A program made the position numbers and the translations under genes. From Octopus vulgaris (Eukaryota), in contig OX597817.1 of the NCBI GenBank assembly GCA_951406725.2, positions 101,184,001 through 101,248,000 of the forward strand: a DNA stretch of 64,000 bases, given 5' to 3'. Under the pieces are notes generated by a model. The model saw only the letters and a list, made by a program, of their open reading frames with translations, ran no database searches and was not told the DNA's origin. Shown here one piece after another: positions 2,262-62,516 of this stretch; within the stretch, counting starts at the first letter, position 1; every line of letters begins with the position of its first letter.

Positions 2262-3046
2262 ATATTATTAGTAAATTGAAGAAATGGAGTTGAACGAAGA
2301 TTGAACAGAAATCGTTTTATTGCATTCTACACGTGTTTCGAAAGCCACAATTTACCAAATTCCGATTGAATAAGGAGACCATATTGTGTCTTTCTCTTCA
2401 GGAAGAAATAGGAAATCCGTTGGCAAAAACAAAAACAGAACAGAGGCGCAGCAAAACAAATCGAACGAGGCTCCTAAGAGCCCATGGCCAAACTGTTTAT
2501 CAATGTATATATAATACACCTAATATTCTTTAAATAGTCAGAACTTTAGTCTCGGTCACAAAGAACATCTACGCACCCCGTGCTCTCACCCACCGGAATG
2601 ACCGCTGCCTGACCTGTTAAAATCTTCAACGCACCCACCACCCGATTTCAACATACATTGATAAACAGTTTGGCCATGGGCTCTTAGGAGCCTCGTTCGA
2701 TTTGTTTTGCTGCGCCTCTGTTCTGTTTTTGTTTTTGCCAACGGATTTCCTATTTCTTCCTGAAGAGAAAGACACAATATGGTCTCCTTATTCAATCGGA
2801 ATTTGGTAAATTGTGGCTTTCGAAACACGTGTAGAATGCAATAAAACGATTTCTGTTCAATCTTCGTTCAACTCCATTTCTTCAATTTACTAATAATATT
2901 AAAATTCAATTATCCGCACCAACGCATGGTTGCAACACCATATGGTTGTACCTCCAACCGTGCTGTCTTCTGCTGTGATTTTTGCTACCAAGGTATCGGT
3001 TAAACTTTTGATTAATCTGCAACAAGATTATTCATCTTTCTATTTC

Positions 3047-3152: not shown

Positions 3153-4585
3153 GTATATATACTTATATCTCCAGCAATATCATCTATTGCATCTCCTGCT
3201 CTCTCTGCCATTCCCTGTACATCGGATAAACGGGACGCCGTTTGGCTGACCGGTTCGCGGAACACCTCCGAGACATCCGCCCCGGCAATAACACCCCAGT
3301 CTCACGCCATTTCCGCTCCACCGGTCACTCCTTGCAACACCTGTCTGTGTTCGGATTGTCCTTGCACACAGGCCATCCGGACTCCCGTTTGCGCCGTGAA
3401 CAGGGATTAATCTTCTCTCTTCGCTCTTTTACGCCATTTGGGCTCAACTCTCCTCCCCGACTCCCACATCTCTTTACTCCTACATCTTTCCACCCCTACT
3501 CTCTTTCCCTCTTCTCCCTTACTCTATTTCTCTCTTCTCTCTTTCTCTCTGCTCCCTCCCTCTCCTCCTCTCCTCTCCCCCTCTTCCCCTCCCTCCTCCT
3601 TCTTCCCACCCAACTCTCCTCCCTTGCCCCAACTCCTACTTCTCTTCACTCCTACTTCTCTTTACTCCTACTTCTCTTCACTGCTACTTCTCTTCACCCC
3701 TACTCTCTTTCCCTCTTCTCTCTTACTTTCTTTCTCTCTTCTCTCCTACTCCCTTTCTCTCTTTCTCTCCCCTCCTTCCCTCTTCCATCTTCCTCTCTCT
3801 TCTCTCTCTCTACTCTCTTCTCTCTCCTCTCTTATTCTCTTTCTCGCTTCTCTCCTACTCTTTCACCCTCTCTTTCTCTCTTTTCTCTTACTCTCTTTCT
3901 CTCTTCTCTCCTCTCTCTCCTCACATACCCACCTTCCCCTCCCCTTCATAAACCCACCCACACCTACACATCCCTACTCCACCTTCCCTATCCCTATCCT
4001 TCCCCTCCCCCTCCTACCCCGCACCCCTCCCCCACGCACCCCACCTACCCCACCCTATGCCTACCCACAAACCCCAACTCTACCCCAACCCCTATCCGAA
4101 CCCACACCCCACACGTGCTTTCCCCACTCTCGCACCCCCACCTCCCAACAACGTCACACCACCCCACACTACACCATACAACATTACACATCACATCACG
4201 ACATCCCACCCACACACCCATCCCCACGTCTTCACACCTACACATAGATACACGCACACATCCATACCACTAGCCCTCTTTCACATGCACATACATACTC
4301 TCTTTGTGTTGGGGGCACCTTTGTGTAGGGGGTCATCTTTACCTTGTTATCTCCCCTACTTTCTTCCTCGTGTTTGACCCTTCTGTCCGACACTAGTCGC
4401 CATGATAGATCGTTAGCCACTACACGCATTTTTTTCTCTCCTTGTTTTCTCTGTGTCCCTTTCTGTAGAAGAGCGTAGGCTCGAAACGTAAAAGACTTTT
4501 TCTGTTCCTGAGAGTTATACAAATACATCTGTTTGTTTTGTACACCACCTGTCTTCGTCTTTTGTTTTCTTCGTAAACTCTCCCT
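3153..4585 (+). mobile_element. 5'-truncated Penelope-like element: GIY-YIG endonuclease, long pyrimidine-rich 3' tail and HHR variant
   Basis: SSNIIYCISCSLCHSLYIG*TGRRLADRFAEHLRDIR..PVSRHF..RLRREQGLIFSLRSFTPFGLN is a PLE GIY-YIG domain with CCHH residues and one in-frame stop; microsatellites on both sides. Confidence 0.88.
4459..4494 (+). ncRNA. Hammerhead-like motif with CUGUAGA core (A6U)
   Basis: cttt-CTGTAGA-a-gagc-gtag-gctc-GAAAC-GTA-aaag; same architecture at 2114, 30330 and 7110-7148(-). Confidence 0.6.
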
Positions 4586-15122: not shown

Positions 15123-15177
<55 letters not shown>

Positions 15178-15393
15178 CATAATTAAATCTCAGAATGAGA
15201 TTGAAACAGTAATCGCTCGATAATGTAAAGTATAGAAGCCATCTTATCATGGCTAACCACATTGGGGAGGGGGTGTTACTGTAGCTTTATAGCCCCAAGA
15301 GATCGTCGTCTCTAGCTGGCTTTAGACACAATATCAGTGTCCTTGGAGTATTTGCAAAGAGAGGCCATCCCTTCCTCGCAAGCCTGAGTGATA

Positions 15394-15436
15394 CGCTCGA
15401 ACTAGTTTCGGGATTGTTGTCTCTCGTCAACGGGCG
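15394..15436 (-). ncRNA. Minimal hammerhead-like motif with U at position 3
   Basis: Minus strand: cgcccg-TTGACGA-gaga-caacaa-tccc-GAAAC-ta-GTT-cgagcg (one mismatch each in stems I and II). Confidence 0.55.
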
Positions 15437-15706
15437 GTAACCACCAGGTCGCGATTAATTCTTTATTATGATTATAAAATCAGTACATAGAAGAACAATA
15501 CCGGACATACATACAAAAAACAGTTAAGTGGTTCGTTTAAAAATTTCCAAAATATATGGATTATTCATTATACAAAAAACTGTATTTAAATTGTCCTTTG
15601 CATTGACTAATATAACATTACATTAGATTGAAATCTTACCGATATATTTTAAACCCCGGCAACCTATAAGGCCCCGCAGCTCTCCTTTCCTCTTCTCCAT
15701 CCATAG

Positions 15707-18700
15707 TTAAACTGGGTTTCTGACACCCACCTTTTTCGCCACTTCCTTCCATCTTTTTTCATACACACCTCGTGGTAAGGTCTTCTTTTCCAGCCCCATT
15801 TTGCTCTTCAGATGATATCTGAAGTAAGTGAGCAAGCCGGGGCCTGAGACAAAGGATCCTATTGCGACTCCTTCTATTCTTGTACGCCACATGCATTCTT
15901 TTACTACTGCAACCGTGCAGTGAAAACATGTCACACCTTCCTTCGAGAGTCCAGTTGGCGGTATCATCTTAATCATAGACTCAGCCGACAGCTGTACTCG
16001 TCCCAGATGCGATAACACGTGTTCTGCGTAACTTATCAAGTCTGACAACTGCCGACAGTGTACAAAAGCGTGCTGGACGGTTTCATCGTCCAACCCGCAT
16101 CTTGGACATGTCGGTGGCACTGAAATTCCGTGCCGCGATAAGTTCTCGCGAACAGGTAAAGCATTCCTATAACACTGCCAGGCCAGGGATCTTTGGTAAT
16201 TATCCAAATACCCCGTCCTGAAAGTCTTTTTAAACAGGTTGGTAAGCTGGTCCTCGTCGAACCCAAGAGCCCCTCCTAGGACGTCGTCGTTCTTTGCTTC
16301 TACCAGCCTGCTATAAAATACCGAGGTGGTATTTCCGCAGCCGGCCTTGTCCGCCTTGTGGATCAGCGTGAGTGCCTGTCGACACTCCTTTTGCCATAAA
16401 GTCATATTCCGTCTTTTGATGTAACCGGGTTTAAAATTCACTAAGGAAGCCGGTCTCGGGAAAAATTCTCCTGCCAGCGGACTCCACACCTTATCACCCT
16501 CCAGGTGGTGCCAGAGATGCTTCAGCCTCAGCGCATGTCTGCGCATCATCAACCAAGGCATTCCTAACCCACCCTTTAACGGTTCCTGACAGCAAACGGA
16601 GCGCCTCACAAGTGGCTTTCCTCCTTTCCACAAAAAGCGGAAAAGGATTCGCTCCAACTTGCTAAGCCATGAATCGGGGCAAGGGACAACGGTCAGGCGG
16701 TAAGTGATTACAGATGCAATAAACATCTGTACCACCTCCGCCCTTCCTTTCAAGGACAGAAACCTTCCGGACCAGGTCCGTACTATGGCCTCCACCTTGC
16801 CCGCCACCTCACTCCAATTCCTCTCCGTTTGGGAGTCTGGCCCAAACCAGACTCCTAGCAACTTAACAGGATCATCTGTCCAGTGTCCCACGGCACTGGA
16901 CAATATCGACTTGCTCCTCCAGGTGCCGAGGCGTAAGCCAATCGACTTGTCCTTGTTAACCTTTGCTCCTGCCACCGCCTCGTATCCTCTGATAGCATCT
17001 TCTACACAAGGTAGCTGAGCCTATTTGGACACGATGAGGGTGACGTCATCCGCATAAGCAGAAACCGTCTTCCAGCCTCCGATCTCATCCGGGTTACTTT
17101 CCAGCTTCTCCAACTTTCGCAGCAATGGCTCGAGAGCCAACTCGTACAAAAGTGGTGACAAGGGGCACCCTTGACGAACTGAACATTCGATCGAAAACGG
17201 TTCCGTTAGGTAACCGTTTATCTGGACGGTGGACTTGATACCGCTATACATTGCGGAGATCCACCCGCGAAATTCAGGGCCCAATCCAGCCGCTTCGAGG
17301 ACCGTCGCCAGGTACTTATGGTCTACCCTATCGAACGCTTTACTTTGGTCTAAATGGACCATTACCCCGCCCTTGCCGGTTAATTTACCCACCCTATCTA
17401 AGGTGTAGCGTAATTGTCCTGGATCGACCTGCCTGGAATTGCACATGTCTGTGCTTTCCCTACAAGTTTATCCACGACAGTCGTCAACCTTTTTGCCAAC
17501 ACCTTGGCCAAAATCTTTAACTCTACATTAAGTAGAGTTATGGGCCTGTAATTACTAATGTTATCCCCCTTGCTCGGGTGTTTCTGGATTAGCGTCACCA
17601 CTCCCCGGCTTACAGAACTGGGAATTCTCCCGTTCTGCTGCCAGTTCGCGTAGACGCCTGCCAGTATTCCCCCGAACAAGTCCGGCATACTTTGATAAAA
17701 CTCGTAGGGCAGACCATCCAGCCACGGCGACTTCTCCCCGGCGCATCCGGCCAGTACCCCCTCTATCTCCGCGAGAGTGATCGCTCCTTCACAGCACTCC
17801 ACCTCACGCCCCGAGAGCCGCGGTCCGCCGGCTAGGAAGTCCTTTAAGGCCCTCCCCCGCTCCAGCGGACCACCACCCCCGAACGCGCGGGCGAAATGCT
17901 GGTGAAGAAACTTTTGCATCTCCTCCTGTCCATAGATCTTGTGTCCCTGTTCGTCAGTTAAAGACTTGATTGAAGCTTTGTTGCCTCTCTGACTCTCCAC
18001 TCGACGGGCCCATCCGGCAACGTAAATACCTTCTCGTTTCCCTGCGCGTAGCTTAGCTCTAACTCTGCAACCTTCGTGTTTGGAGTTAAGGTGATGGTAC
18101 AATACCGTCCTTGCCGCCATCACTCCGGATGCAGAGCCAGATTCCATTGCCTCGTTTAGATTCTTAACTAAATCGTCCTCTATCCTCGATCTATCTAACC
18201 TTAGCTGATTGCTAAATCTAATGGACTCTGAACGAATGGCTCTTTTGACGGAGTGCCACCATCTATTGTTAATGATGGTGCCACATAATGCCCTCTGTAT
18301 TAACACCTTAATCTGGTACGGAAGTCTTCACAATTCAAAATAGACTTGTTCAGCTTCCAATACCCGGGTCCCTGTCTATGACACTTATCTAATTGCACCC
18401 TACAAGTCACAAATTTGTGATCCGTGTAAGGCACAATGTAAAACTGTGGACAACTAAACGTATCCTTATCTCTTTTCCTAACGAATATCCTATCTATATA
18501 CAATCTGCGTGAGCCGTCGTTGTTACTCCACGTCCACTGTGGAACGCTCGGCTCATCCAGTCGATAACGGTCTACTAGGTTAAAGCTCTCTAGTAGACCC
18601 TTGAGGCTAGGGTTCCCCTTCCTATTGGTTGAGCCAACACTGTCGACCCGCGCTTCGAGGATAGTGCTTAAGTCCCCTACTAAGACTACCGTTTTCGACG

Positions 18701-19086
18701 TCACTAAAAAGTGCTCCAGATTCCGAAAAAAAACCCGACTGCCTACTCTCATTCGGAGCGTAGACAGCAACCAGCCTGAAGGACTGTTTACTTACGTGGG
18801 TCACATCCAGAACGACCAGCCTGCCTTCTGGGTTCAGAAAGACAGTACTTACCTGCAAGTCCAAGCTCTTCCTGATAAGGACTGCCACGCCCCTTCCTCT
18901 TCCTCGGCTAGGAGAAATAAATTTCTCGAAACCATTTAGAAGAGGCGAGAACGCTTGGGCCCCGTTCATCTTGGACTCGGTTACAATAGCTACGACCACT
19001 CCGTGTGTCGTGAGGTCGTTCAGGAGACAAATTTGTTTCCATTTCGACCCCATTCCACGCACATTCACACAACCCAGCTTTGCCAT
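15707..19086 (-). pseudogene. Tx1-like ORF2: APE endonuclease, RT and C-terminal zinc finger; about 3 frameshifts and 1 stop
   Basis: CVNVRG, VVLVGDL, IDRIFV, TDHK, GPGYWKLN (APE); NYRPITLLNVELKILAKVLAKRL, LDQSKAFDRVDH, VRQGCPLSPLLY, AYADD, KLLGV (RT); CPRCGLDDETVQHAFVHC (zinc finger). Confidence 0.93.
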
Positions 19087-19110
19087 TGTCGGAGAGAGAG
19101 AAAAAAAAAC

Positions 19111-20547
19111 TTACGGTTGGGACAGGGAGCATGACAGTTTAAATCTGCATGCTTCCCCTTCTTCTTCCCTTGTGGTCGTAGTTGCAGGGCTCTTAACCGG
19201 CGTTGCCATCGGGCTCTGGGTAGGTGTGGTTGCCGGGGTTATAGTAAGTTTACCCTCCAGTATTTCGTTAGTAACGTCTCTGATAAGGTTATTTTTTAAA
19301 TGTTCTTGGAGTGTTTTTTCCTTCCACTCGTCTTCTTTATTTTTGCAAAACGAGTGGTCGACTTAGTGTCTGCAGACTTACTGAATAATTTCAGTTTTGA
19401 AAATTTAAAATACTTGAACACTCTTTCATTTTTCTCGTCGAATGCTACAACCTTTTCATTTTTTAAAATCAATTTTTTCCAATCTTGTTTAATGGGGAGG
19501 GGCTTGGAGAACTGTGTTCCAATGAATACAGTGCCGTAGGGGTGGGGCTGGGGAATTTGTTTTGTATGTATCTCTGCGGTGTTTGCTGATTTTTTCTTTG
19601 TTTGGGGAGGGGAGTCCAGGGTATTTTCTTTTTTTCTTTTGTGTGTCACCTGTGTAAATTCCATTTGTTCATTTTTATCTTCCATTTCGATTCCCTTCCT
19701 TGTCGCAGTCTTGGGGTCTTTTTCCGCCTTTTCTTTATCTGTGTTTGAAGCACTTTGAGGAGGGGCTTCGCTGTTTTTCTTTTTTTTTTATGCAGTTCGA
19801 GCGGACGTGACCCTTTTCACCACATTTGAAACACCTAGGTCTGCGCCCCTCCACTGACACTCTCATTGTAATTCCGTCCTCAATAAATACCCTATCGGGT
19901 AAGTTTCCTAGCACATTACTTTCTGCTTGAACGAGGAGTTCGAGCGCTTGTCCCTTCCAGTGTACCTCCTCTTTCCTTTTCATCTGCAGAATTGAGACTT
20001 TCTGCTCTACGTCGTGCAGAACCGCTGCTGCTACCCACATTATATAATATCCTACTGGAATGTCTTCCACATATAGTTTCGCAGTTCTTTTTCCCATATA
20101 TGTAGGTAGTAACATGATGTCCTCACTTTTTAAGGTCATCGATGAAATATCTCTTGTCACATCAGCCGAGTCGAAATGTGCTTCAACGGTAGCGCTGCGG
20201 GCACCTCGACCGACGTGGCGAATTTTGCTCCACACCGGTGACAAGCATTTCTCTACTATTTCGTTCTTCACGTCCATTATTTTTTTCTCTTTGTTACTGT
20301 AAACCTTGTATACGACTATCTTAGCCTTTATTTCCTGTAATTTCGCTTGCGGCGGTACCAGTTTAATTTCATTGCCTTCCTTTTTTACCAAGTTCCGGTA
20401 TTCGAATAACTGTTCAATTTTAAATTCTACTTCCGTTATGTTTCCGCCCACTGCGGCCGAGAAAGACTGTTTTTTAACCTCGATATCCTTCTGTTCGCCT
20501 TTTCCCATCACGGGAAAGTCGCTCCTCGACGCCAAGTCGAATTCCAT
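19111..20547 (-). pseudogene. Tx1-like ORF1 (gag-like, CCHC zinc knuckle), frameshifted
   Basis: VEGRRPRCFKCGEKGHVRSNC; continues through 19685-19296 and a third frame ending ..LSCSLSQP* shortly before the ORF2 ATG. Confidence 0.88.
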
Positions 20548-21480
20548 TTCTCAAATTATGAGAACCAATTTTTCAATAAAAAAAATTACCCCGAAGGTAA
20601 TAACAATGTTTATACACAGAATTTTCAGCCCCATAGGGCGAAAATTACTGTCACACAACGGACAACTGTTCAATTCACGAGCAAACACAAACAACGACGA
20701 ACAAAAAATGAACTCACTCAACAAAATAGGCAGCTAACTTCTCAATACGCAGATGGAAGAGGGGTCCCTAGACGAGTTAAAACACCAGGTCGCGATGAAA
20801 GTGAAGGCTGCTTTGCAAATATATATAAGTTTTTCTAGTGGCGTCTGCCACTGATGTCGAAAAACGAACAGTAAGCATAATTAAATCTCAGAATGAGATT
20901 GAAACAGTAATCGCTCGATAATGTAAAGTATAGAAGCCATAATCCCGAAACTAGTTCGAGCGTATCACTCAGGCTTGCGAGGAAGGGATGGCCTCCCTTT
21001 GCAAATACTCCAAGGACACTGATATTGTGTCTAAAGCCAGCTAGAGACGACGATCTCTTGGGGCTATAAAGCTACAGTAACACCCCCTCCCCAATGTGGT
21101 TAGCCATGATAAGATGGGTTCTATACTTTACATTATATATATATATATATATATATGCATGTGTGCATGAGTATGGGTACGTCTGTTTGCTTATATGTGT
21201 CCGTCTCTTCCTTTTCTTTACTTATATAAATCCATTATAAGAATCTGTTCAACAAAACAAAAGACAACTAAAAATGAATACTACCTTGACAATACAATGT
21301 CACCCTAAAATATATTGTTAATTTCTCCGATCGTAGGTCAAGTAGATTGATTGTATTCAGTTTTGTAATTATCCGCCTCGGTTAATGTCAAAAAGTAAAA
21401 TTTGCCGACATTCTTACACAAAACTAATACCAATGCCATTTTTTTACTGTTTGTTCTTTTACTTTTGTGCATCTATTACA

Positions 21481-24025: not shown

Positions 24026-24061
<36 letters not shown>

Positions 24062-24063
<2 letters not shown>

Positions 24064-26704
24064 AGAGAAAGTTGGTGTGTGAAAGCACGTGGTTAAATAT
24101 ATAGAAAATAGTAAAAAGTGAAAAAACTACAGAAGGCTTGTTTTAAAAGGTTAAAAAATATATATTTGAGTCATTATGTCAGAAGAATGTTATAAATTTT
24201 TTTCATACAGTGACATAGCTTTTAAAGAAATTACCGGTTTCGTGTTTAACTTCTCAAATTTCTCAAAACATTGTGTTATGATTTCGTTAAAAAGTGTAAA
24301 GAAGAGTTCCAGGTAAGGGGAGGTAATAAGTGATTTCTTCCGGTGTAAGGGAGATAATCGCTTTATATTTCTTGCCTTTTTAAAAAATTCAATGGGGTGA
24401 GTTTCTCTGTATAAGAATGTTAGAGTGGTTAAGTTTGGGCTTATATTTTTCAATGAAGAATGTTTCCTTGTTTAGTCTAATTTGTGTTGGTGTTCCAATT
24501 GCACATTGATAAAATGGAAAGATTAAATATTGTGGTAGTAGTTGCTTTGCGCATTTCTCAATATGCTCACTAAAGGGTATCATTCTGTATTCTGGGAATG
24601 CAATATGTTGTCCATGCAGTGTGCATCTACGTCTGAGTGATAGTCCCGTGGACCCCACGTAGTTTTGGTGGCAGCCCGAGCATCTTATGACATAAATTAT
24701 GTTTTCAGAGGCACAAGTAAAATTAGATTTGATCTTGAATTTTTGTCCCTCTTTGAAGAGGAATTCTGATCTTTCTAGAAGGTTTGGGCATGTTGCACAG
24801 TTTGGTCTACCACATTTTTTAACTTTTGCATCCGTAATTTCAGAAAGCAATTTTGCCTTTGTGAGAATCTTTTTAAGTGATTTAGGTTGCTTGTAGCTTT
24901 TAATGATTTTATGTATGTTTAGAATTTCCTTTAATTTGGGGTCCTTAATAAGTATTGGTAAATTCTGGGTCATGATGGTGAAGGCTTCTTTGTTTCTGGG
25001 GTTGTATGTGGATATGTAAGGCAGTATTTTCGGGGAAGGTGTGTTGTTGTGTTGAACTTTTCTTAAAGTTTCTATGTCGATTTCTGTTGTACGTCTGATC
25101 CCATCCTCTATCAGTTGAGCTGGGTAGTGTCTGTCAATTAGGGTGTTTTTGAGTTCTTGTAGTCTAAAGTTCCTGGTATTTTGTTTTGACACTATTGTGC
25201 ATATCCTTCTTGCAAGGTGTGTCTTGGGTGGCATGAATCAAAAAGTAGGTATTGTTTGGCGCCTGTGGCTTTGTAAAAAATGTCTGTTTCTATTTTAAGG
25301 TTAATTTTTTAAATTAGTATATCCAAGAATGGGAGCTCATTTTGGTTGTATTCCATTGTGAACTGTATATTTGGGTTGATGCTGTTCAATAGGTTTTTGA
25401 ATTTTAGGAGTTTATCTGTGTTTTCATTCCAGAGTATAAAACAATCGTCCAGGAATCGTTTCCAATTCTCTTTTATGTATTGAGAAAGGGGGTTTCCAAA
25501 GGTTGATAAAGATTCCTGGTAAATAATTATTTCCAGGTAGCCCATTGTTAGGTTCGCAATGACTGGTGCTGCCCTTGTACCCATAGCAATTCCGGATTTT
25601 TGACGGTAAAATGTATTGTCAAACATGAAGTGGTTATTACGTAGGATGAATTCAACCGATTTAGTAATGAATTCTTTACTGATCTATTTGGTATTTCTGC
25701 CGGAAATTGGTCCAGCCAGAACTATATTGCCTCTAGTCCATAATTATGAGGTATACTGGTATATAAATTAACTACATCAAATGAAACCATGATTGTTTCT
25801 TCCTTGGCTTTTTTTGGAAGGTGGTTTAACATATCCAAGTCATCTCTGATATGGCTATCGATATGTTTAAGGAAGGGTTTCAGGAGGATGTCCATAAATA
25901 GATTTAATCTGTGTGTTTCACAGGTTGGGCCAGCTACAATGGGTCGTAGTTTTAGGTCCCCCGGGTTAGGTGTGTGTATGTCTTTGGTGATTTTTTAATG
26001 GTTTCATTTATAATTTGGCCTTTATGAATTTTTGGCAGACCATAGAAGAGGCTAGGCTTGCATTTAAAGTTTGTTAGAAAGTCAATCTCTTTGGTTGTTA
26101 GTTCCTTTTCAGGGGTTTTAATTAGTGAAGATAGAGTTTTCATTATTTTTTGCGGGGTGTAGTCGGTGATTTTTTTCATAATGTTGATTGTCATATTAGT
26201 GAGCATATTGAGAAATGCGCAAAGCAACTACTACCACAATATTTAATCTTTCCATTTTATCAATGTGCTATTGGAACACCAACACAAATTAGACTAAACA
26301 AGGAAACATTCTTCATTGAAAAATATAAGCCCAAACTTAACCACTCTAACGTTCTTATACAGAGAAACTCACCCCATTAAATTAAAAAAAGGCAAGAAAT
26401 ATAAAGCGATTTTCTCCCTTACACCGGAAGAAATCACTTATTACCTCCCCTTACCTGGAACTCTTCTTTACACTTCTTAACGAAATCATAACACAATGTT
26501 TTGAGAAATTTGAAAAGTTAAACACGAAACCGGTAATTTCTTCAAAAACTATGTCACTGTATGAAAAAAAAATTATAACATTCTTCTGACATAATGACTC
26601 AAATATATATTTTTTAACCTTTTAAAACAAGCCTTCTGTAGTTTTTTCAGTTTTTACTATTTTCTATATATTCAACCACGTGCTTTCACACACCAACTTT
26701 CTCA

Positions 26705-26706
<2 letters not shown>
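24062..26706 (-). mobile_element. Neptune-type Penelope-like element, 5'-truncated, with an inverted about 510-bp 3'-end copy (26196-26706), in (TA)n
   Basis: RT motifs FYGLPKIHK, LRPIVAG, SFDVVNLYTSIP, GIAMGT, WKRFLDDCFILW, LPFLDI; linker CGRPNCATC; GIY-YIG NIIYVIRCSGCHQNYVGSTG..H..H..KE..FI. Arms 24062-24573 / 26196-26706. Confidence 0.93.
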
Positions 26707-26756
<50 letters not shown>

Positions 26757-26949
26757 TGTTCTTTTACTTGTTTCAGCCATCCTGCTGCTGCCATATATAT
26801 GCACAGTTTATACTTTTATTCATATTTATTTTTCTGGAAAAATATATTTGCCATGAGTTGTCGAGAAACACGTAACTAACGGAACTATAGTATGTATGCA
26901 ATAGTGGATTTTTTCTTGGACTATATGAATATATATGTTGTGTGTGTGT

Positions 26950-33097: not shown

Positions 33098-36000
33098 CTT
33101 ATTAGCCACGCAGGGCCGAATACAGAGGGGACAATACAATGTAGTACTTTTCTTTTCGAAAGAGAACAAAAGAAAAAAATACGATCAAAAGGGGTCGAAA
33201 GCGAAATAACAATGTTCCGTTTATAATAGAGTTCCCAAAAAGGGGATTAAAAATGTAGGGCAGATTAGGTTTATCCGTGGAAAGAAAAGCCTATGAAAAC
33301 GACCACGGTAACCTCAGACTGGGAAAGAAATACATGAGAGCAAAGCTCTCTCTCTCTTGAATGTATAGGATAATGCTCAAAGTGGTTTCGTCATTCATGC
33401 GTACTATATTTGCTACATTCACCCACTTTTTATTGAAACTTTCATGAGACAAAACTTCCTTCATTCTCACCTTCCTATTCAGGTGGTACTTGAAAAAGTT
33501 GATTAGCGGTTGGCCAGAGAGGAAAGTGTTTGTCTCTAAACCATTCAAACGCGTCCACCACACACATTTTTTCACCATAGCCACCAGTACAATGAAAACT
33601 GCCTTGCCTTCCCAGTTAAAGGAAGGTGGCGGGGTAATATTCATGATAGACTCGGCCGACAACTGAATTTGTCCCACACGTGACAGCAGCCGTTCTACAT
33701 AAGCCCACATGTCTGAAACGTTTGGACATTGCACGAATGCGAGCAGAACGGTTTCGTCGCTCTGACCGCATCTCGGTCAGAGCGACTGGTCAAGTCGGTC
33801 GGTTATTTCACGAACCGTTCCTGTAGAGCTTATTCTAAACAGGCAATGCTTCCCGATAGCACTACCAGGTCAGGGATCTCTTGTGATTGTCCATAGGCCC
33901 AAAGGTGTTCCTTGTTGACGCCCAGAACGTCGTTCTCCCCAAGAACGTCGTCACACCTCCCCTCCATAGAACGCTTTTATGGAAGTAGAGTTGCACAAGT
34001 TTGGTCCCGGTCGGCAGAGTTGCTCGAGAGCATAGCGACACTCGCGGTGCCATTCTCTGTTTGATCCAAGACTGCATTTCGGCCAAAGAGACGAGCTGCA
34101 GGAAAGCGCGTCTCACAAACGGCGACCACCCCTGTTCACCGTCGTCTATGAAGCGCTAGAGATGTCGCAGTCTCAGCGCATGTCTACGCATCATCAACCA
34201 CGGCATGCCCAGCCCTTCATTTAGCAGGTGTTGACAGCAAATCAAATGGTGATGGTAGGGTCGGGACAAGGCACGACGGTCAGACATTAATAGATGACGG
34301 ACGCGATGTACGCGTACGCCACCTTCAGCTAATCTTTTAGGGATAGGTTCCTCTCGGTCCGTTGCTAGGAGAGAGTATCCACCCTACTCGTTATCTCGTC
34401 CCAGTTCTCCATTTGGAGGTCTGGTCCGAACCAGACCCGGTGCAATTTAAACGGTCCGTCGGTGCAGTGTCCCAAGATAGAGACGCTGTTGGACGGCATG
34501 GGCTTATTTCTCCAGGTGCCGAGCCGCAAGCCCACTGACTTTTCCCGGTTATCGCTCTCGTTACCGCTTCGTATTCTTTTGGTGATTCGCCGATCAAGTC
34601 AATATGCCTGTGGCTCGACACTATGACGGTGATGTCGTCCGCATATGCAGACACGCTCCTCTCACATTCCAATTCTCGTGGGATGCCCCTCAGCATCGCC
34701 AGTTTCCGCAGTAGTGTATCTAAAGTTAATACGTACAGAAGCGACGAGAGGGGTCATCCTTGATGGACCGAATTCGTTATGTTAAATGGTCTGGATAGAT
34801 GACTATTTATGCGAACTACCGATCAGATGCCGTTGTATAAGGCAGCGATCCAACCACGGAAGACGGGCGGAAATCAGCCGCTATGAGGGCAGCCTCCAAG
34901 TAACGATGGTCGACTCTATCGAAAGCTTTCGATTGACCTCAATTGATCAGTGCCCTACCCATGCCATCAGATGAAGCAGCGCATCAGATGAGGTCGTCGT
35001 GGATACTCCTGCTAAGCACGGCGCATGTTTGCCCCTTGTCGACTATTTTCTCGACGACAATCACCAACCTGTCGGCTAGCACCTTGGCCAAAATCTTCAA
35101 ATCTGCGTTGAGTAGAGTGATGGGGCTGAAATTATCTATGATGTTCCCCTTGTTAGGATCTTTCTTTAGCAGTGTTACCGCTCCTCGACTCACAAAACTG
35201 GGGATACTCCCGTTTTGCTACCAGTTGCAGTAGACCGCTGCCAAGACGCCTCTAAACAAGTCTGGCATGTGACAATAAAGCTCGTAGAGCAGACAACCCA
35301 AGCTTGGCGACTTGTCTCCTGCGCAGCCTGCCATCGCATCCCGTATGTCCGCAGCTGTGATGGGTCTTTCACAACACTCTGCCTCGCTTGCTGAGAGTCG
35401 TGGCAGGCCATGCAGGTAGGCACTAAAGTATACCCTGCGTTCTGACCCACCAGTTGTTTGTTTTTGTGTTGATGTATTCCATCAACTCTGTGTTTCTCGT
35501 ATTTATGGCTGTGACCATCGTTGCTGCATATGTTTTTGCAGTGTTGGTGTTGGTGTTGTTTGTGCTAGTGTTTGTTCGCAATGTTTTCGGGAGTTGTGCA
35601 TCTCCCTGCTTTGTTGGTGTTTGCTCCTCTTTTCTTGCGCCTCTTCCGCCTTCATATTCTGGCTATTTACCATTCCTTGCTGCTTTCGTCTTCCGACGAA
35701 ATTTCTGAGGGATCGGAAGGGGATAAGGGCATATTGTAAGCGTCTATGTATGTTTCTGTAAGTGGTTATGCTGTTGCTTTCATTGATGTTGGTTGTTGAT
35801 TGTTTGTATGTGGTGTATGTGATATAGGGGAATGGGAATCAGTTTTTGTATATTCTTTTGGTTTTTCTGTTTCTTTAGTTCCAGCTACTGTTTTTGTTGG
35901 AGTTTCAAGGTGCTGCTGCACTTTCAAGTGTTGGTGTTGGCGAGTTTGATTGGTGTGTCTGTTTCGTTGTACTCACCCTGTTGTAAGTCTTCTCTAGTGT

Positions 36001-37117
36001 GGGTAGCAGCGCATTTTTTCAGAAGTTTCTGGTTGTGGTGGTGGTGGTTGTTGTTCTTGTTTTTGTTGTTCCTTCGCTGTTGGGCACAGTATTTAGGTGC
36101 TCCTCGCTGCCAAACAGGGAACAGCGAGGCCTCCTACTTTCTACCACTACGTATAAATTATGGCCGTCTGGCAGCTCAATTTAGTCTGGGACGCTTTTTA
36201 TTGAGTTCTGGTCTATTTGCATCAGCAACTGAATGATTTTTCCCGACAGCAATCTCTAATATAGTTATGTTGTCTTTGTAACAAATGGCGGACAACAGCC
36301 ATTGTGTCTCTACTTTTGGAGAGACATTTTGGATTGAGATTTTGGTCACTCGTTGACCAAGGTATCTCGGAATCAAAACTGATTCCTCAGACTGTAGGGT
36401 GAGCGTAAGGAGTTCTTTGGCTTTTTCTTCGTTGTCGAAGTGAAATTGTATTGTCGCATATCTCTTCCACCAGTATTGTCTTATTTTTGTTTTAAGGCTT
36501 CTGCAAAATTTGATTTGTTTTTGTTGTTGCTGTTGTTGTTGCTGGTAGTGGTGGTGATAGCAGTAGGAGCAGAAATTTTGGCTATTGTGTTGATGCTGGC
36601 AGAAGAGCCATTTTGTTTTGTAGTGGTGATAGTTGGAGTCTTTTCCATACTTTCTTTGTTGTTGTTGGCGGTGATGGTGGTGGCAGTGGTGGTAGCAGTG
36701 GTAGTCTTGGTGGTGGTGGGGATGAGGGTGACAGAGCTGTTAACAATCGCTGTTGCCGTATCAATGATGTTGACAGAGTTCACCTTCGCGTCTCTCAGAT
36801 TTGCCTTTGCTTCGTTCGTATTTTCCATGTCTCTATTTGTATTCGAGTGGTGGGTGTGCGTGCAGTTGTTCTGGGGTTTTTTTCTAGCGTTTCGTGGCTA
36901 GGGAAATGCTGGTCCATGAACGAATTTGACCAGCGTTCCACTATGGAATTACTCGACATTTTTCAAAGTCGAGCAAAAAGAAAAATAGAAATTTAGATAG
37001 GGCGGGCCAATTTCTCCCTTGAAAACACATTCAAATGAAAGTTGGGTGTTTCACACATCTCGTATGCAAAGATTAAAACAAAATGTGTGCAATAAAAGGT
37101 CGAGCTGATGCAACAAC
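33098..37117 (-). mobile_element. Degenerate L1/Tx1-clade element lacking the endonuclease, embedded in (GATA)n
   Basis: RGAVTLLKKDPNKGNIIDNFSPITLLNADLKILAKVLADRL, SVSAYADDITVIVS, QLSAESIM..PP (homologous to the 15.7 kb ORF2); ORF1 remnant IPRYLGQRVTKISIQNVSPKV; (GATA)n at 33040-33097 and 37118-37226. Confidence 0.88.
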
Positions 37118-48899: not shown

Positions 48900-50313
48900 T
48901 GTTCCTGCTGGTGGATTACCCTAGGCCAGGAGAACTGTTGGCCGGAATTGTACTTTATTCTGCTGTGTTTTGAACTGTCTTCCTTTTGTTTTGGCTTCAA
49001 ACTTTTTTTGAAATTTGGTTTGAACAGTGGATAAAATGTCTCGAGGAGAGGACGGTGGTGCTGTGAACATACTTCGTACTCCAAGTCGCTCGACACCATC
49101 GCCCACTTTAAAAAGACCGATATAGAGACAGAGTTGGCGGAGTATATGCCAACTATAAAATTTATTTCCAGGGGTGTCAAATATGTGACGGTGTGTTTGC
49201 TGTTTGACACCCCTAAAGAGGCTCGCAATTTTGCAAGTCAGCCCTTAGAGGGCGAAGAAATATTGTTTCTTCCCACGTATTGTGGGAAGAAGTTGACAAG
49301 AATCTGGTGTTTCTAGATTTTCTTCAAAAGGCCGGTTCTAGAGGGATGCCCCCGCCCCAAGTGCCACCTGTGCCTGGAATCAGGTCACATTATAAATAAC
49401 TGTCCCCAGGACCAAAGTAAGGTTCTGGAACAGTTAGTGATGGAAGAACCCCACCTCCTCCTTCGGAGAGAGAGATGAAGGCAGTGAAAACCCCCCGAAA
49501 AATGGGGAAAAAGGAAGGTGGGCAACAATGGTTGCCCACCGAAGGACCCCAAGGCTGCGGGAGGAGCTACACCCTCTCGTAGCAAAGCGGAGAAAACAAA
49601 ACAGAAAAACGGGGCAGTGCCGTCGGTTAATACACTATTGGCATGTTCCGAAGCGCCATTGGTGGGAATTGCACCAATGACGGTGGAATTTGTTGCCTCG
49701 ACCCAATCGAGAAATAATATTTGGTCTTCTCCCGCAGGGGAGAGGCACTGGGAAAGTTTACTAAAAAAGTTTGCCTGTGGAGGAGACATAACCAGTATTA
49801 AAGATCCTGGATGGCCTCTGCAAGTAGCTGTGGAGGTCATCTCAGACATGGATAATGGACTCCTTCCCAGAAGATGTATTCTGCTTCCGATTAAGCACCC
49901 TGACCTGGCACTATCGGAGTGCTTGGGTGACGCTTTGAGCCTGGTCAGGTGCCGGCGGGGCAGAAAATTGTAAAATTAAGAGGCTGAGTGCCTCATACTG
50001 AAAGGGCATATGGCCCATAAGTGAAAATGTAAGAGGCCTAGTGTCTCATTTTTAAGGAGATGGTGTTATTTGGTGTCTCATTAGTGTCTCATTATAAAGA
50101 CCTTGAGTCCAAATGGAACATTAGTAAGAGGTATATTACCTTAAATTGTATGTTTGTAAAAGAGCAATGTTTTAGAGAAGCAGAGATCGCCGGGCGTCTT
50201 CTGCCTTCCCTCATTAATACCATTTTTTTCATCATTCATCTCATTAATGTTATTGTCCAGCCCGCAGCTATTACTTCTGTGTAATGCCTTGATGGCAAAT
50301 TGAATGGAAAAAA
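48900..50313 (+). mobile_element. ORF1-only Tx1/L1 derivative (HAL1-like), copy 1, degenerate
   Basis: AEYMPTIKFISRGVKYVTVCLLFDTPKEARNFASQPL, PKCHLCLESGHIINNC, DITSIKDPGWPLQVAVEVI; then 3' UTR and an A-rich end with no ORF2. Confidence 0.75.
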
Positions 50314-52892
50314 GTAGTTTGCTTATCGCTTACACGCATGCGCTCTTGTTAGTGTTGTTTTTGACACTAAGAAAGTCGCACGCTATTTTATAGCTGCGAA
50401 TTATTGGCAAAAAGTGCTCAATTGTAAGGTAAGGCTTTTGTTTGTTGGGTCCAGTGGTGGTTTGTTGTTTGGTGTGTAATATTTTTTCCCAGGCAAAAAA
50501 TTCTCACTGTATTCTAGACATTTGTCGGCTCGCTGTTGAGCATTAGTGTTCACTTAAGGGGAATTGTTTTGGTAGGCGTGTCTCGCCGCCAGGAATTCGA
50601 ACTGTGATTTTTCCTTGTAGCTGCCAGTTGGATTACCAGTGAACGGTGGAATTTTGCATGAAATATTAATTTTCTTCCTGCTGACGGACATTTTTGTGAA
50701 CTGTCTTCGTATTCTGAAATCTGTTCCTGTTGTTGGAGTACGAGTTAGGCCTATGAGTACTCAAGTGTGGAAGATTCTGCGTCTGTTCACCTGTGGTTTT
50801 TTTTTTTTTGGTTTCTTTCTTCCTTGTCTATTATTTTTGCTTTTTTCTTCTTTCCTCTTCCATTACATATTTTTTCTTCTTTCTCTTTTTACTTTTTCCT
50901 TCATACTTTTGTTTTCCCCCTTTTAAAAAGTTTTCTGGACTTTTTTTGATGCACATGGTTGAGTGTTGTTCTGGGCACTAAGGAAGTCGTACGCTATTTT
51001 GTAGCTGCAAATTATTAACGAAAATAACTCAACTGTAAGGTAAGAGTTTCGTTTTTCTGGGTCCAGTGGGGGTTTTTTGTTTGGTATGTAATATTTTTTC
51101 CCAAACAAGAAGTCCTCACTGGATTCTGGACATTTGTCGGCTTGCAGTTGAGCATTATTGTTCACTTAAGGTGAATTGTTTTGGTGGGCGTGTCTCGCCG
51201 CCAAGAGTTCCAACTGTGAATTAAAACATAAGGCCAGGAGTACAAATTGTCCGGAATTTAATTTTTGTGGAGCTGCCGTCATTTGAACTGTCGTCACTTC
51301 CAAAACTTTCATTGTGCTTCAAACTGTTTTTTTACGCTCTTTCCTTTCTGTTCTATTGTGTTTTTTACCCGTCTTTCTTCCAGCTGTTTTTTTTTAAATT
51401 GTTTCTGGACTCTTCATTTTTGTTAGGACTATTTTGTGGCCTTTTTTTTTAAAAAAAAGAGAAGCATGGAGAAAAAGTGAATACGGTCTTGGAATGGGAT
51501 ATTATTCAACCCAAAGAGTGGCTTAAACAGCAAGAGAATACGGTGGTGTTGACGGTGTATTCGAAGATTCTCGACGCTATTGCCATCTTCTTCAAGCAGG
51601 GGATTGAAGAGAAGTTGGCAGAGTATCTGCCAACTGTGAAATTTATTGCCCGGGGTGTCAGATATGCGACGATTTGGTTGCTATTTGACACTCCAGAGGA
51701 GGCTCGTATTTTTGCGAGCCAGCCCCTAGAGGGCAATAAAATTTTATTTCTTCCTACATATTGTGGGAGGAAATTGACAAGTGGCTGGATTTGCGATTTT
51801 CCCCCTAATATTCAACCAGGGTGGATAGAGGACAATATCCGCCGGGGTCTGGGTGGCAGTAGCACCAAACTCCTCAGTGTAAAATTCTTACCAGTGGCTG
51901 ACTGGGTCGGGTCAAAAGTGGTTTTGACCCTTTGGACTCAATCAGCAAATAATTTAGTCTTCGCAGACTTTCTGACTATGGCTGGGTGCAGGTACCCGGT
52001 GATTCTTGAGGGTCGCCCCCCACCCAAGTGTTACCGTTGCCTGGAATCTGGCCATATAAAAAAGAACTGCTCCCAGAAACAAAGAAAGGTCTTGGAGCAG
52101 TTGGTTGGTACCTCTCTTGAAGAGGGAACGGAGGCGTGAAGGAGGTGGAGGCCTCCCCAAAGAAGGGCCGCAAGAGGAAGAAGGTGAACAACAATAGGTG
52201 CTAACCAAAGGATCCTAGGGCTGAGAGAGGGGAGGTGGATCACCCGGTTATGGAGGAAACCCACCCTTCCTCATTAGGAAAGAAAAAAAGAGGAAGATAA
52301 AGATAAACGGGACATTGTCGGTAGTCGGTAACACAATACCGGCATGTCCCAGAACATCGTCGGTGGGTATTGTGCCACCGACGGTGGAAGGGACGACCCC
52401 TCCCCCTGAAGACGAGGAATTACTTGTCTTCTTTAACAGGGGTGGGGAGGTGGTAAAATGTTGGAGGAACTCCAAAAGAGTGTAGATCTGGCCTACATAC
52501 GGGATCCCGAATGGCCTCCGCAGATAGGTGTGGAGGTCATAGGGTTTTCCATATTGCAAAAGCTACAAAAACTGAAAGAGGAGTTTCGCTTATGGCTGGG
52601 TGGCCCTAATACGTCATACGCCACATTTTTGAATGAGGCATGGAAAATGGCGGGGTAAGCGGTCATAAGTGATATCGAAAATGATGGACATAATAACGAG
52701 TAAGAAGTTTAAAAGCTTTGTTAGTCTTAAATGATAAGAGATTTTGAAACCTAATCCTATTTTAAAGAATAATGTTTTCGGAAAACGTCGGTCGGCGGGC
52801 GCCGTTCGTTTCCCCCATTCATTCATATATTTTTCATTTATCTCATTAATTTAAATGTCGAGCCCGCAGCTATATCTATGTAATGCTCTTGT

Positions 52893-52940: not shown

Positions 52941-53000
<60 letters not shown>

Positions 53001-53002
<2 letters not shown>

Positions 53003-53747
53003 TGAGAAATTTGGTTTGTGAAAGCACGTGGTTGAATATATAGAAAATAGTAAAAAATGAAAAAACTACAGAAGGCTTGTTTTAAAAGGTTAAAAAATAT
53101 ATATTTGAGTCAATATATCTGAAGAATGTTATAAATTTTTTTCTTACAATGACAGAGTTTAGAAGAAATGACCGGTTTCGCGTTCAGCTTTTCAAATTTC
53201 TTACATCGTTATGTTTACGTTGAGAAGAGTTATCGTTATATTTATGTTGAGAAGAGTTCCAGATAAGGGGAGGTAATAAGTGATTTCTTCCGGTGTAAGG
53301 GAGATAATCGCTTAAACTTTTTTGCCTTTCCTTTGGAGTGAATTTCTCTGTATAAGTATGTTGGAATGGTTAAGTCTGGGCTTGTACTTTTCAATGAAGA
53401 ATGTTTCCTTGTTTAGTCTAATTTGTGTTGGTGTTCCGATAGCACATTGGTAAAATGGAAAGATTAAAAATTGTGGTAGTAGTTGCTTTGCGCATTTCTC
53501 AATGTGCTCACTAAAGGGTATCATTCTGTATTCTGGGAATGCAATCTGTTGTCGATGCAGTGTGCATCTACGTCTGAGTGATAGTCCCGTGGATCTCACG
53601 TAGTCTTGGTGGCATAAATTATGTTTTCAGAGGCACAAGTAAAATTAGATTTGATCTTGAATTTCTGTCCCTCTTCAGACATATTGACTCAAATATATAT
53701 TTTTTAACCTTTTAAAACAAGCCTTCTGTAGTTTTTTCACTTTTTAC

Positions 53748-53751
<4 letters not shown>
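53001..53751 (-). mobile_element. Short 5'-truncated copy of the Neptune PLE (GIY-YIG C-terminal part plus pLTR) with a short inverted arm, in (TA)n
   Basis: STGLSLRRRCTLHRQQIAFPEYRMIPFSEHIEKC nearly identical to 24389-25234; arms about 53047-53124 / 53673-53751. Confidence 0.9.
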
Positions 53752-53799
<48 letters not shown>

Positions 53800-60376: not shown

Positions 60377-61599
60377 TTAAGATAACTTTAGTATATTTCG
60401 AAATGCCTCGAAATTTATTCACTGTCTCTAAAATACAATTAAATAGTCCGCTGTCAACTGATAAGCTTTATTATTTTAAAATTCTTTGGCTCCAGTAAGC
60501 GCCTGCTTCGTAAAATATCGAACATCAGAGCATACATCATTCAAAGAATCATTTAGTGATATATATTTAGATATTTTGTGCAATTCTCAATAATCGGACA
60601 AGATGTTGCTGTCATGAAATAATTCATATATTTATTGAAATTCAGTTTTGTTTTTACTGGGACGAAATATTAAACCAACAGGGAACCCTCTGAGATTGTT
60701 TTTTAATTGATTATTACTATGAAACTTTCAGCGTATCTGTTTCTCTATTTACAGTAAATAACTCGAAAAATTATTTCACTAACTTTTAGCAGACAAGTTT
60801 CCTATTAATGAAATTACACAAACTAATTTCTTAAGAAATGATTTTCTATAATGAAGCAAAACATAATTATATTTTTTCTAAATAACTGAGAAATTCCACG
60901 TTTGTAGAAAGGAAACGAAGATTAAATAAATTCCAAGAATAAAAGCGAAGCAAAAGAGTGAATTTCAAAGAAAATTAATATCAGATATGCAAGTATGTTA
61001 TTCTTGAAAGAGATTCTCAGAGATAGCGACAATTTTATGTATCATACCATAGTTTGATTCAAAACAAATTTTACAGAGCTAAATTCAAAGAATATAATTT
61101 TTATGACAAACAAATACACATATAATTGATATATGCATATATAAGTAAACGACAATTATATACGAAGAATTTCTGTCTTGCATTTAACAACATAAATAAC
61201 TTAAATACGTATTAAGTAATTAAGATTTTCATATAAATATTATCAATGCACTATAATACAAACAATGACATATAGTGCATTGTTGTACCATTCAAAACAA
61301 CTCTTTATAAATATTATCATTTTCACACGATGTTAATAATGTGGATTAGACGAATTCATGGAAAATTCCGAAGGAAAGTTAATGAAGTTTCCGAAATTTT
61401 AATAAGGACTTATATATGAATCAGAAGGATCGCATCAGACGGTAGCTTCTTTCAAATTCAAAGTTTCCCTTTAAAATCGAGATACATAAGAAATGTTCCC
61501 TGATTCTGAGTCATTAAATCTAAAGCTTAAATGCTAAGCAATGTTAAATCTTTGAATGAGAAATAAACGGTAGCCATACGGAATCGTAAAATATAATTT

Positions 61600-61995
61600 C
61601 CAACTAAATGTAGTGGTCCCATAGAGGACGATGCTACTGTTGTTTTTAGCCCCAAACGGACGTCTCCTCCAGCTGGCTAACGACACACCGTCTATGTCCA
61701 ATTAGTATTTGCGAGGGGAAATCATCGTTCCAATCTGTACGTGATACACACACACCCGGGTTTCTGGATACTAACCCATCATCTTCGTTAACACGCGGAG
61801 GATTCAATTAGAATCCCCCGTGTGTTAACGTGGGCCTCTTAGAGACAATGTAAACTTCATTTAATCAAGGCAACCTTGGACTGAAAAGTAGCTTGCGACA
61901 TACACTTCGCTTGGATATTTACCACGTCCGTGGTTTCACTCGCTAGGAAATATATCTAGCCCGGATTTTATCTTCTCTATTCCTTAACTCTTGGA
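61600..61995 (-). mobile_element. Diverged relative of the 15.2/21.0 kb small element (conserved RNA motif plus degenerate HHR), next to (TA)n
   Basis: Collinear blocks TACTGT, TAGCCCCAA, AGCTGGCT, GACAC..TGTCC, AGTATTTGC, GTGATAC, GTTTC.GGA shared with 15274-15413. Confidence 0.7.
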
Positions 61996-62078: not shown

Positions 62079-62110
<32 letters not shown>

Positions 62111-62115
<5 letters not shown>

Positions 62116-62417
62116 GGTTGTATACTGTCAATCTAACAAGAACGTGACAGTAGGGGGTACACCACCGTTATATAGCCTAGGAGGCATCGAACGCCTCCTG
62201 ACAGCTTCGACACATTTTATCATGTGTCCTTATATACACATACGAACACAGGATAAAATGTGTCGAAGCTGTCAGGAGGCGTTCGATGCCTCCTAGGGCT
62301 ATATAACGGTGGTGTACCCCCTACTGTCACGTTCTTGTTAGATTGACAGTATACAACCATTATATCGCTCCACCACCGTACACCTCTCTACGAGAGATTT
62401 AGAAACTCAATATTTCT

Positions 62418-62418
<1 letters not shown>
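62111..62418. mobile_element. Fold-back element (about 117-bp arms 62111-62227 / 62246-62363) in (TA)n, carrying the conserved RNA motif
   Basis: Near-perfect inverted repeat seen directly; TA arrays on both sides. Confidence 0.8.

Positions 62419-62516
<98 letters not shown>

Follow-up and report, generated by a model that had tools for sequence, protein, structure and literature searches.

The motif reported from the octopus DNA analysed here (a single stretch of 64,000 nucleotides, hereafter the window) is a real, conserved and undescribed RNA module that sits inside a known kind of mobile element, an animal retrozyme, with boundaries and a rationale unlike those first given for it. According to the modelled folds, it consists of two arms of a larger branched RNA and not of a closed 80-nt unit. 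For the unit as a whole, there is good support for RNA structure on the hammerhead strand. The preliminary description had proposed a conserved functional RNA module in Penelope-type non-coding elements, which was borne out as regards conservation, structure and the RNA strand, and had to be given up as regards the closed 80-nt unit.

The motif and its repeat superfamily

All five instances proposed in the window (A and its mirror, B, and C and its mirror) proved correct in coordinates and letters. The motif comprises the hairpin P2 (GGACAC/GTGTC), the stem P3 (AGCC/GGCT), and P4, the apical stem on P3. The P2 and P3/P4 arms folded in A (z -1.6) and C (z -3.3 and -4.9), and the worn copy of B reached a z of only -0.6. 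Searching the genome (2.8 Gb in 227 contigs) with a two-gap pattern that covers part of the motif gave 10,634 matches (5,286 + 5,348) versus 581 (299 + 282) for a reversed-pattern control, where 10,634 is a lower bound as subfamilies H and J lie outside the pattern. The motif sequences are real and not chance occurrences. A loose pattern scan of metagenome contigs returned at least 119 stretches, 80 of which were run against the covariance model with 0 matches. DNA nearly identical to the octopus sequence occurred in sequencing runs under four coded organism labels, none of them listed as RNA.

A, B and C had been presented as three divergent elements, which does not hold: they are homologous across the whole unit, family C also has a hammerhead, and all three are subfamilies of one superfamily of type I hammerhead repeats. 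The unit is a monomer of 351-365 nt that occurs in head-to-tail copies, with more than 10,000 copies in the genome; it is non-coding, and its length is insufficient for a reverse transcriptase (RT). Genome searches with A, B and C each yielded ~2,000 first-look candidates, of which 40 per search were scored, and the loci fell into 13 groups. A covariance model (R1), a check of the kind that had been suggested, recovered the further subfamilies H, I and J, resulting in a total of about 16, all with homologous units alignable end to end. Core identity among the five groups with at least two members was 52-68%. Copies of subfamily I were 100% identical over 185 bases, which indicates that the superfamily was recently active. 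Tandem loci exceeding one monomer made up 36 of 72, and 45 of 72 carried both orientations; G+C in model matches was 0.32-0.51. Contigs from sequencing runs whose RNA nature is only guessed covered families C and A, with a retrozyme/LINE depth ratio not above that of DNA-like runs, which speaks neither for nor against expression.

These properties match the animal non-LTR retrozymes described in the consulted parts of Cervera and de la Pena (2020, PMC7229834), which have a type I hammerhead, are tandem, non-coding and self-paired, and mostly have a G+C below 50%. Mussel units measure 350-390 nt, and Penelope-like elements were proposed as mobilisers (PMC7229834; Li, Clavereau and Pollet, 2026, preprint 10.64898/2026.07.22.740005, passages of both); the octopus units fall within the 150-450 bp of tandem unit length that delimits the class. 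The main-text passages of the same two sources name no conserved motif besides the hammerhead, with the supplement possibly showing related mollusc folds, and no octopus or cephalopod family. Unlike the published retrozymes, the octopus superfamily combines ~16 subfamilies that share a multi-arm fold and have their 3' ends fixed at two sites; no homologous pLTR turned up in the autonomous families tested.

Table 1. Retrozyme features and the inserted LINE in window coordinates.
Feature	Position	Strand	Remarks
Subfamily A retrozyme, 3' part	15176..15455	-	Monomer 86 to second 3' end, then (TA)n; 98% to full monomer L015
Type I hammerhead of A	15394..15436	-	UUGACGA...GAAA...GUU, U3.G8 wobble, short palindromic stem III
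Arm P2	15325..15342	-	GGACAC/GTGTC
Arm P3/P4	15291..15321	-	AGCC/GGCT, internal loop, apical stem
P5 domain	15206..15282	-	15275-15282 with 15206-15214; encloses P6, P7 (15239-15254) and first 3'-end site
LINE target-site duplication, one copy	15442..15455	.	
LINE, probably Tx1/L1-type	15456..20782	-	Inserted 25 nt 5' of hammerhead core
LINE target-site duplication, other copy	20783..20796	.	
Upstream part of same A insertion	20783..20940	-	Monomer 299 round to 99; tail, linker hairpin
P0 5' strand	20811..20823	-	Predicted partner of GCAAATA; within 20783..20940
Inverted 5' arm of A	20941..21136	+	Monomer 126-321; hammerhead cut by breakpoint; holds 21001-21082; P2 21014-21031, P3/P4 21035-21065, P7 21102-21117; ends at first 3'-end site, adjoining (TA)n
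Worn subfamily B copy	61535..61783	-	82% to L023; hammerhead about 61745-61783, P2 61682-61699, P5 61633-61641 with 61566-61574
Inverted arm, subfamily C	62109..62246	-	Monomer 190-328; ends at first 3'-end site beside (TA)n
Subfamily C copy	62246..62420	+	Monomer 209 to second 3' end; P5 62306-62314 with 62371-62379; hammerhead lost via 5' truncation

Fold, conservation and covariation

The predicted order of the fold is a long helix P0 capped by the hammerhead, P2, P3/P4, a domain closed by P5, and a terminal hairpin (P8). From an unfitted alignment (MAFFT, 17 copies), RNAalifold predicted P2, P3, P4 and the long-range P5 unprompted. P5 joins ACAGTA to TACTGT ~65 nt downstream; 89% of its cells are paired, and 7 of its 9 pairs carry double changes. 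The three-way junction that TACT/AGTA had been thought to close was rejected because each strand has a better partner: that helix was paired in 57% of cells, showed no covariation, and had a probability of 0.00-0.01 in circular folds of 11/11 full monomers. The GCAAATA segment was predicted to pair upstream in P0 with a probability of 0.78-0.99 in 8/11 monomers. P2 and P3 formed in 8/11 full-monomer folds, the failures being worn single copies of B, F and G.

Mean pairwise identity across 15 subfamily rows was 0.71 for P2, 0.67 for P3/P4, 0.72 for the hammerhead core and 0.65 for P7, and 0.35-0.64 elsewhere, with stem I and P0 at 0.35-0.49. P2, P3/P4, P5 and P7 were kept in every subfamily with the region in view; C/C2 had lost P6, and in the very young subfamily I it was disrupted. 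Different lineages carry double changes in P2 and P3: J reads GATGC/GCATC and AACC/GGTT, H reads AGCT/AGCT, and A2-like copies read GGCAC/GTGCC. The claim that G-U wobbles mark the hammerhead strand was upheld by a G-U to A-C ratio of 73:22 in P2-P4 among 75 de-duplicated copies, and of 114:75 over all helices.

Covariation was evaluated with a tree-aware test (my own G-test with an R-scape-like null), for which the larger alignments were fitted to the analysis's own model. A single P4 pair passed in each of the three runs (E 0.0001-0.002). One run added another P4 pair together with two from P5, and a different run added one pair each from P5 and P7 (E 0.002 and 0.04 for the single P5 and P7 pairs). 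No P2, P3, P6, P8 or TACT/AGTA pair was significant in this test, with a best E of about 0.3 for P2/P3, and support for P8 was weak. The covariation predicted for the motif was thus found in one P4 pair in every run, while the basal stems failed significance; the structure proposed for P2 and P3 is carried by conserved pairing together with a small number of double changes. The odd apical stem quoted for B reflects decay after insertion; family copies have GGAGG/CCTCC or CTTCC.

The missing significance of P2/P3 and the end-to-end homology of the subfamilies would also fit a motif with no special function, kept by shared descent and general selection for self-paired RNA, with short G+C helices tolerating few changes. 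This explanation seems very unlikely, as stem I, P5 and P6 are of similar size and diverged much more, and P6 was lost where P2/P3 were kept.

Rfam covariance models gave only sub-threshold hairpin and microsatellite matches (window, E<=1; 7 loci, E<=2), so at these thresholds the motif matches no described family, as the preliminary description had expected. ARAGORN found 0 tRNA genes in 10/10 loci, and Rfam gave no tRNA match. A tRNA-derived origin was rejected; the P5 domain is loosely cloverleaf-like by eye, without a tRNA signature. The fold of the SRP Alu domain offers itself as a comparison for the two arms, and was dropped on the grounds that the linker between them varies and is absent in subfamily I. 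The consulted passages of the literature, including PMC6962438, PMC10886601 and PMC11662667, contain no description of the motif, the family or a retrozyme-targeting LINE, with Repbase and Dfam lying beyond this search.

A promoter within the unit, or another signal at the DNA level, could also account for the conserved letters and leave the hairpins secondary, but this appears quite improbable. A mobile tandem unit needs its own promoter, the P2/P3 letters are nearly invariant, and transcription of the unit may benefit the LINE inserting into it; double changes with pairing preserved, and a G-U bias confined to one strand, nevertheless point to RNA, no tRNA or Rfam gene was present, and by eye no A/B box was conserved across subfamilies.

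The hammerhead was another region of high conservation. In 15/15 subfamily rows it showed the core, the GAAA and the UH, and its stems I and II covaried. Cores read UUGACGA in A (13/14 copies), CUGAUGA or CUGACGA in B (8/11), CCGAUGA in C (11/14) and UUGAUAA in H (9/9), and the 3-8 pair was retained as C-G, U.G or U-A. The importance of this pair was demonstrated in passages of PMC11167929, and 8/9 frog retrozymes showed no in vitro cleavage according to parts of 10.64898/2026.07.22.740005. By these sequence features the hammerheads appear intact at the family level. The hammerhead had been called degraded, which traces back to the window copies: A(+) is cut by an inversion breakpoint and the copy of B is worn, with CUGAUGA or CUGACGA in most copies of its family. 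The suggestion that the motif compensates for a weak hammerhead loses its basis with the retained 3-8 pair and the covariation of stems I and II, as nothing needs compensating if hammerheads are intact in every subfamily in view. Rfam hammerhead models did not match the superfamily (window, E<=1; 7 loci, E<=2).

The same data bear on whether the module, possibly including P5, could be a ribozyme of an undescribed self-cleaving or ligating type, an option that I consider highly improbable. It would be a conserved, unnamed structure without an Rfam match in a retroelement that uses ribozymes, and HDV-like, twister, twister-sister, pistol and hatchet ribozymes are likewise small conserved structures occurring in retroelements. 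The module also has a few conserved unpaired bases, namely a loop G in P2, a loop G in P4, and TAA after P3 (75 rows). Against this stand the hammerhead in every subfamily in view, the failure of the three-way junction, and the position of most conserved sites within helices, with no long conserved single-stranded core. A scan of a 178-position model for pseudoknots detected no 4-bp helix between unpaired segments in at least 40% of 75 rows. The module had neither a conserved pseudoknot nor an Rfam match in these scans, in keeping with its reported dissimilarity to those five ribozyme classes.

Insertion pattern, candidate enzyme and proposed function

Insertion ends were mapped for six subfamilies. 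Two intervals amounting to 13% of the unit held 110 of 138 3' ends, a count inflated by the choice of loci for similarity to queries ending near these sites. The first site (43/138) lies 8-19 nt after helix P7 and the second (67/138) at -4 to +23 nt of the GAGATTTA end, leaving a tail of 43-60 nt between them; 88 of the 110 had AT-rich flanks. The 3' ends map about 70-130 nt downstream of the motif arms, which speaks against the earlier idea of the motif as a priming site. The 138 5' ends fell at 130 different positions with no pile-up in the motif or at the hammerhead cut site, and are consequently uninformative on the ribozyme idea.

Inverted 5' arms, scattered 5' ends, two 3' ends and AT-rich targets constitute a Penelope-like signature, as passages of Craig et al. 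(2021, PMC8557442) describe an inverted 5'-truncated arm, a tail, and a preference for AT-rich or (TA)n targets in Penelope-like elements. The anole Poseidon element PAc and the Penelope pLTR (parts of Frangieh et al., 2024, PMC11167929) similarly have a hammerhead followed by a downstream region and two 3' sites. The tail published there is 30-40 bp, whereas that of the retrozyme is longer and the retrozyme has no ORF. A large conserved structure lies between hammerhead and tail in the retrozyme, where local Neptune-type elements have a short AT-rich stretch instead.

The mobilising enzyme is probably Neptune-type, a label based on the C-x4-C-x2-C linker preceding GIY-YIG in candidate RTs. 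Neptune-type sequence was fused directly to the retrozyme in L137 and L114 (2/30 loci of family 1) and in the H locus L296, or in 2/12 H loci counting L114. Such fusions are as template switching would leave and may have arisen in this way; insertion plus deletion is also possible. Neither the two Neptune-type families examined nor the other hammerhead families among 30 loci yielded an autonomous element with the motif. The 3' ends of Neptune-type family 1 itself (30 loci) had no match to the motif model, the 2 matches being the fused retrozymes, and family 2 (29 loci and 7 long stretches) had none. A hammerhead pattern gave 16,370 matches versus 2,520 in the control, and the motif adjoined the ribozyme in only 6 of the first 30 loci.

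How animal retrozymes recruit an RT remains to be shown according to passages of PMC7229834 and 10.64898/2026.07.22.740005. In anole PAc, the protein binds within a 172-nt stretch formed by the hammerhead and the sequence after it, and the tail is delimited by two internal RT start sites (PMC11167929, in part). The arms occupy the matching place and are retained in all subfamilies in view, which favours a recognition module, one of the roles first proposed: I see about an even chance that the motif lets a Penelope-type, probably Neptune, RT bind and copy the retrozyme RNA. By analogy with published retrozymes and the anole Penelope element, tandem copies would be transcribed, the hammerhead would cut the transcripts into monomers, probably circularised thereafter, and the protein would bind the RNA between hammerhead and tail, nick AT-rich DNA, and start reverse transcription at two internal sites, 12-19 nt after P7 and 4-22 nt after the GAGATTTA end. 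The motif's absence from autonomous Neptune-type 3' ends and its distance from the start sites count against this function.

A role in the life of the RNA circle, where the arms would shape the central junction, shield the RNA, or be bound by a host protein such as a ligase or transport factor, is rather unlikely. Retrozyme circles are highly self-paired and were ligated by RtcB in vitro (PMC7229834, in part), the entire octopus unit is structured (circular MFE z of -2 to -9 in 8/10 monomers), and the autonomous elements tested lack the module. Were they pure scaffolding, the arms should drift freely in sequence while staying paired, as stem I and P0 have done; P2/P3 instead keep their letters and some unpaired bases. 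For the favoured recognition function, the superfamily provides a natural alignment of ~16 subfamilies with a mapped fold, two mapped putative start sites and very young copies. Combined with a young, intact Neptune-type candidate enzyme from the same genome, this makes the question of RT recruitment directly testable in an existing in vitro assay.

This candidate stems from a very young Neptune-type family (L354-L360, e.g. L358 3101-5428) with many intact frames of 776-847 aa and a ~2 kb 3' region that is largely (TG)/(TA) microsatellite-like and ends soon after a UUGACAA...GAAA hammerhead-like variant (by eye). An abundant Neptune-type Penelope-like family with inverted arms and two kinds of 3' end (~18,000 first-look candidates) is present in the window at 24028-26766 and 52941-53760; its 3' ends in 30 loci were 11 long, 16 short and 3 other, and its 3' region has a minimal hammerhead-like variant by eye. 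Further Penelope-like elements appeared as a perfect 247-nt inverted repeat and a GIY-YIG fragment (window 2262-2899 and 3230-3440). L128 (2143-3455, with pieces in L011 and L160) holds another Penelope-like family, whose RT frame is closely preceded by a hammerhead-like motif; it presumably resembles the Hydra clade. A very abundant short hammerhead family (L153, L160, L161, L163, L166-L168; core CTGATGA...GAAAC...GTC) lacks the motif and sits in (TA)n as short inverted insertions. A non-coding repeat in L002 (about 1750-2150), which I take to be Helitron/DINE-like, carries a reversed piece of retrozyme P5-P7 and the GAGATTTA end.

A LINE family at one retrozyme site

Instance A and its mirror belong to one insertion, interrupted by a 5.3-kb LINE that is flanked by a 14-bp duplication. 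The LINE encodes a zinc-knuckle ORF1 and an APE-RT-zinc finger ORF2, which is broken by frameshifts in the window copy; judged by this domain layout and the sequence-specific target, it appears to be Tx1/L1-type. Among 167 candidates of the family, 40 were scored, and 40/40 were inserted at one retrozyme site in one orientation, 25-32 nt 5' of the hammerhead and with a duplication of 13-14 bp. The targets matched ATCG-N4-CYGG in 37/40; two others began with ATCG and had target deletions, and one had a clipped tail. Beyond the LINE, the retrozyme continued in 37/40 and other sequence followed in 3, one of them a second LINE copy, and the 5' flanks were retrozyme linker in 11/11 in view (12 fetched). 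The copies were 94-99% alike and their targets included A-, F- and C-type subfamilies, which indicates independent insertions. The family is young and, in the copies scored, target-specific for the retrozyme.

Sequence-specific LINEs have precedents in other repeats and small-RNA genes (PMC4494074, PMC8869645, in part), such as Tx1L in Tx1D, Tx1-Mar in Mariner-N4, and Keno in U2 (passages of Kojima, 2015, PMC4494074). Tx1-type elements often target transcribed multicopy units according to the same passages, and the target-specific ones resemble the octopus LINE in being APE-type, in using one site of a multicopy non-autonomous element, and in the 13-14-bp duplication. These passages mention no retrozyme target, which would make the octopus LINE at its one retrozyme site a new kind of target for sequence-specific LINEs.

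A more far-reaching reading, which I regard as doubtful, is that P2-P3/P4 and P5 form a dedicated RT-capture module, evolved by the retrozyme lineage itself instead of being taken from an autonomous pLTR, that fixes where the Neptune-type RT starts, and that the unit would also be the exclusive target, perhaps promoter and 3'-end ribozyme, of its own LINE. If true, Penelope enzyme, retrozyme and retrozyme-targeting LINE would form a three-level system.

Other Tx1/L1-like LINE remnants lie in the window at 33291-36900, 49385-52139 and 57655-59221, and the retrozyme model had no match beside them. Tandem copies of the LINE in its target were seen in L392, and another sequence occupied the same retrozyme site in L387 and L411.
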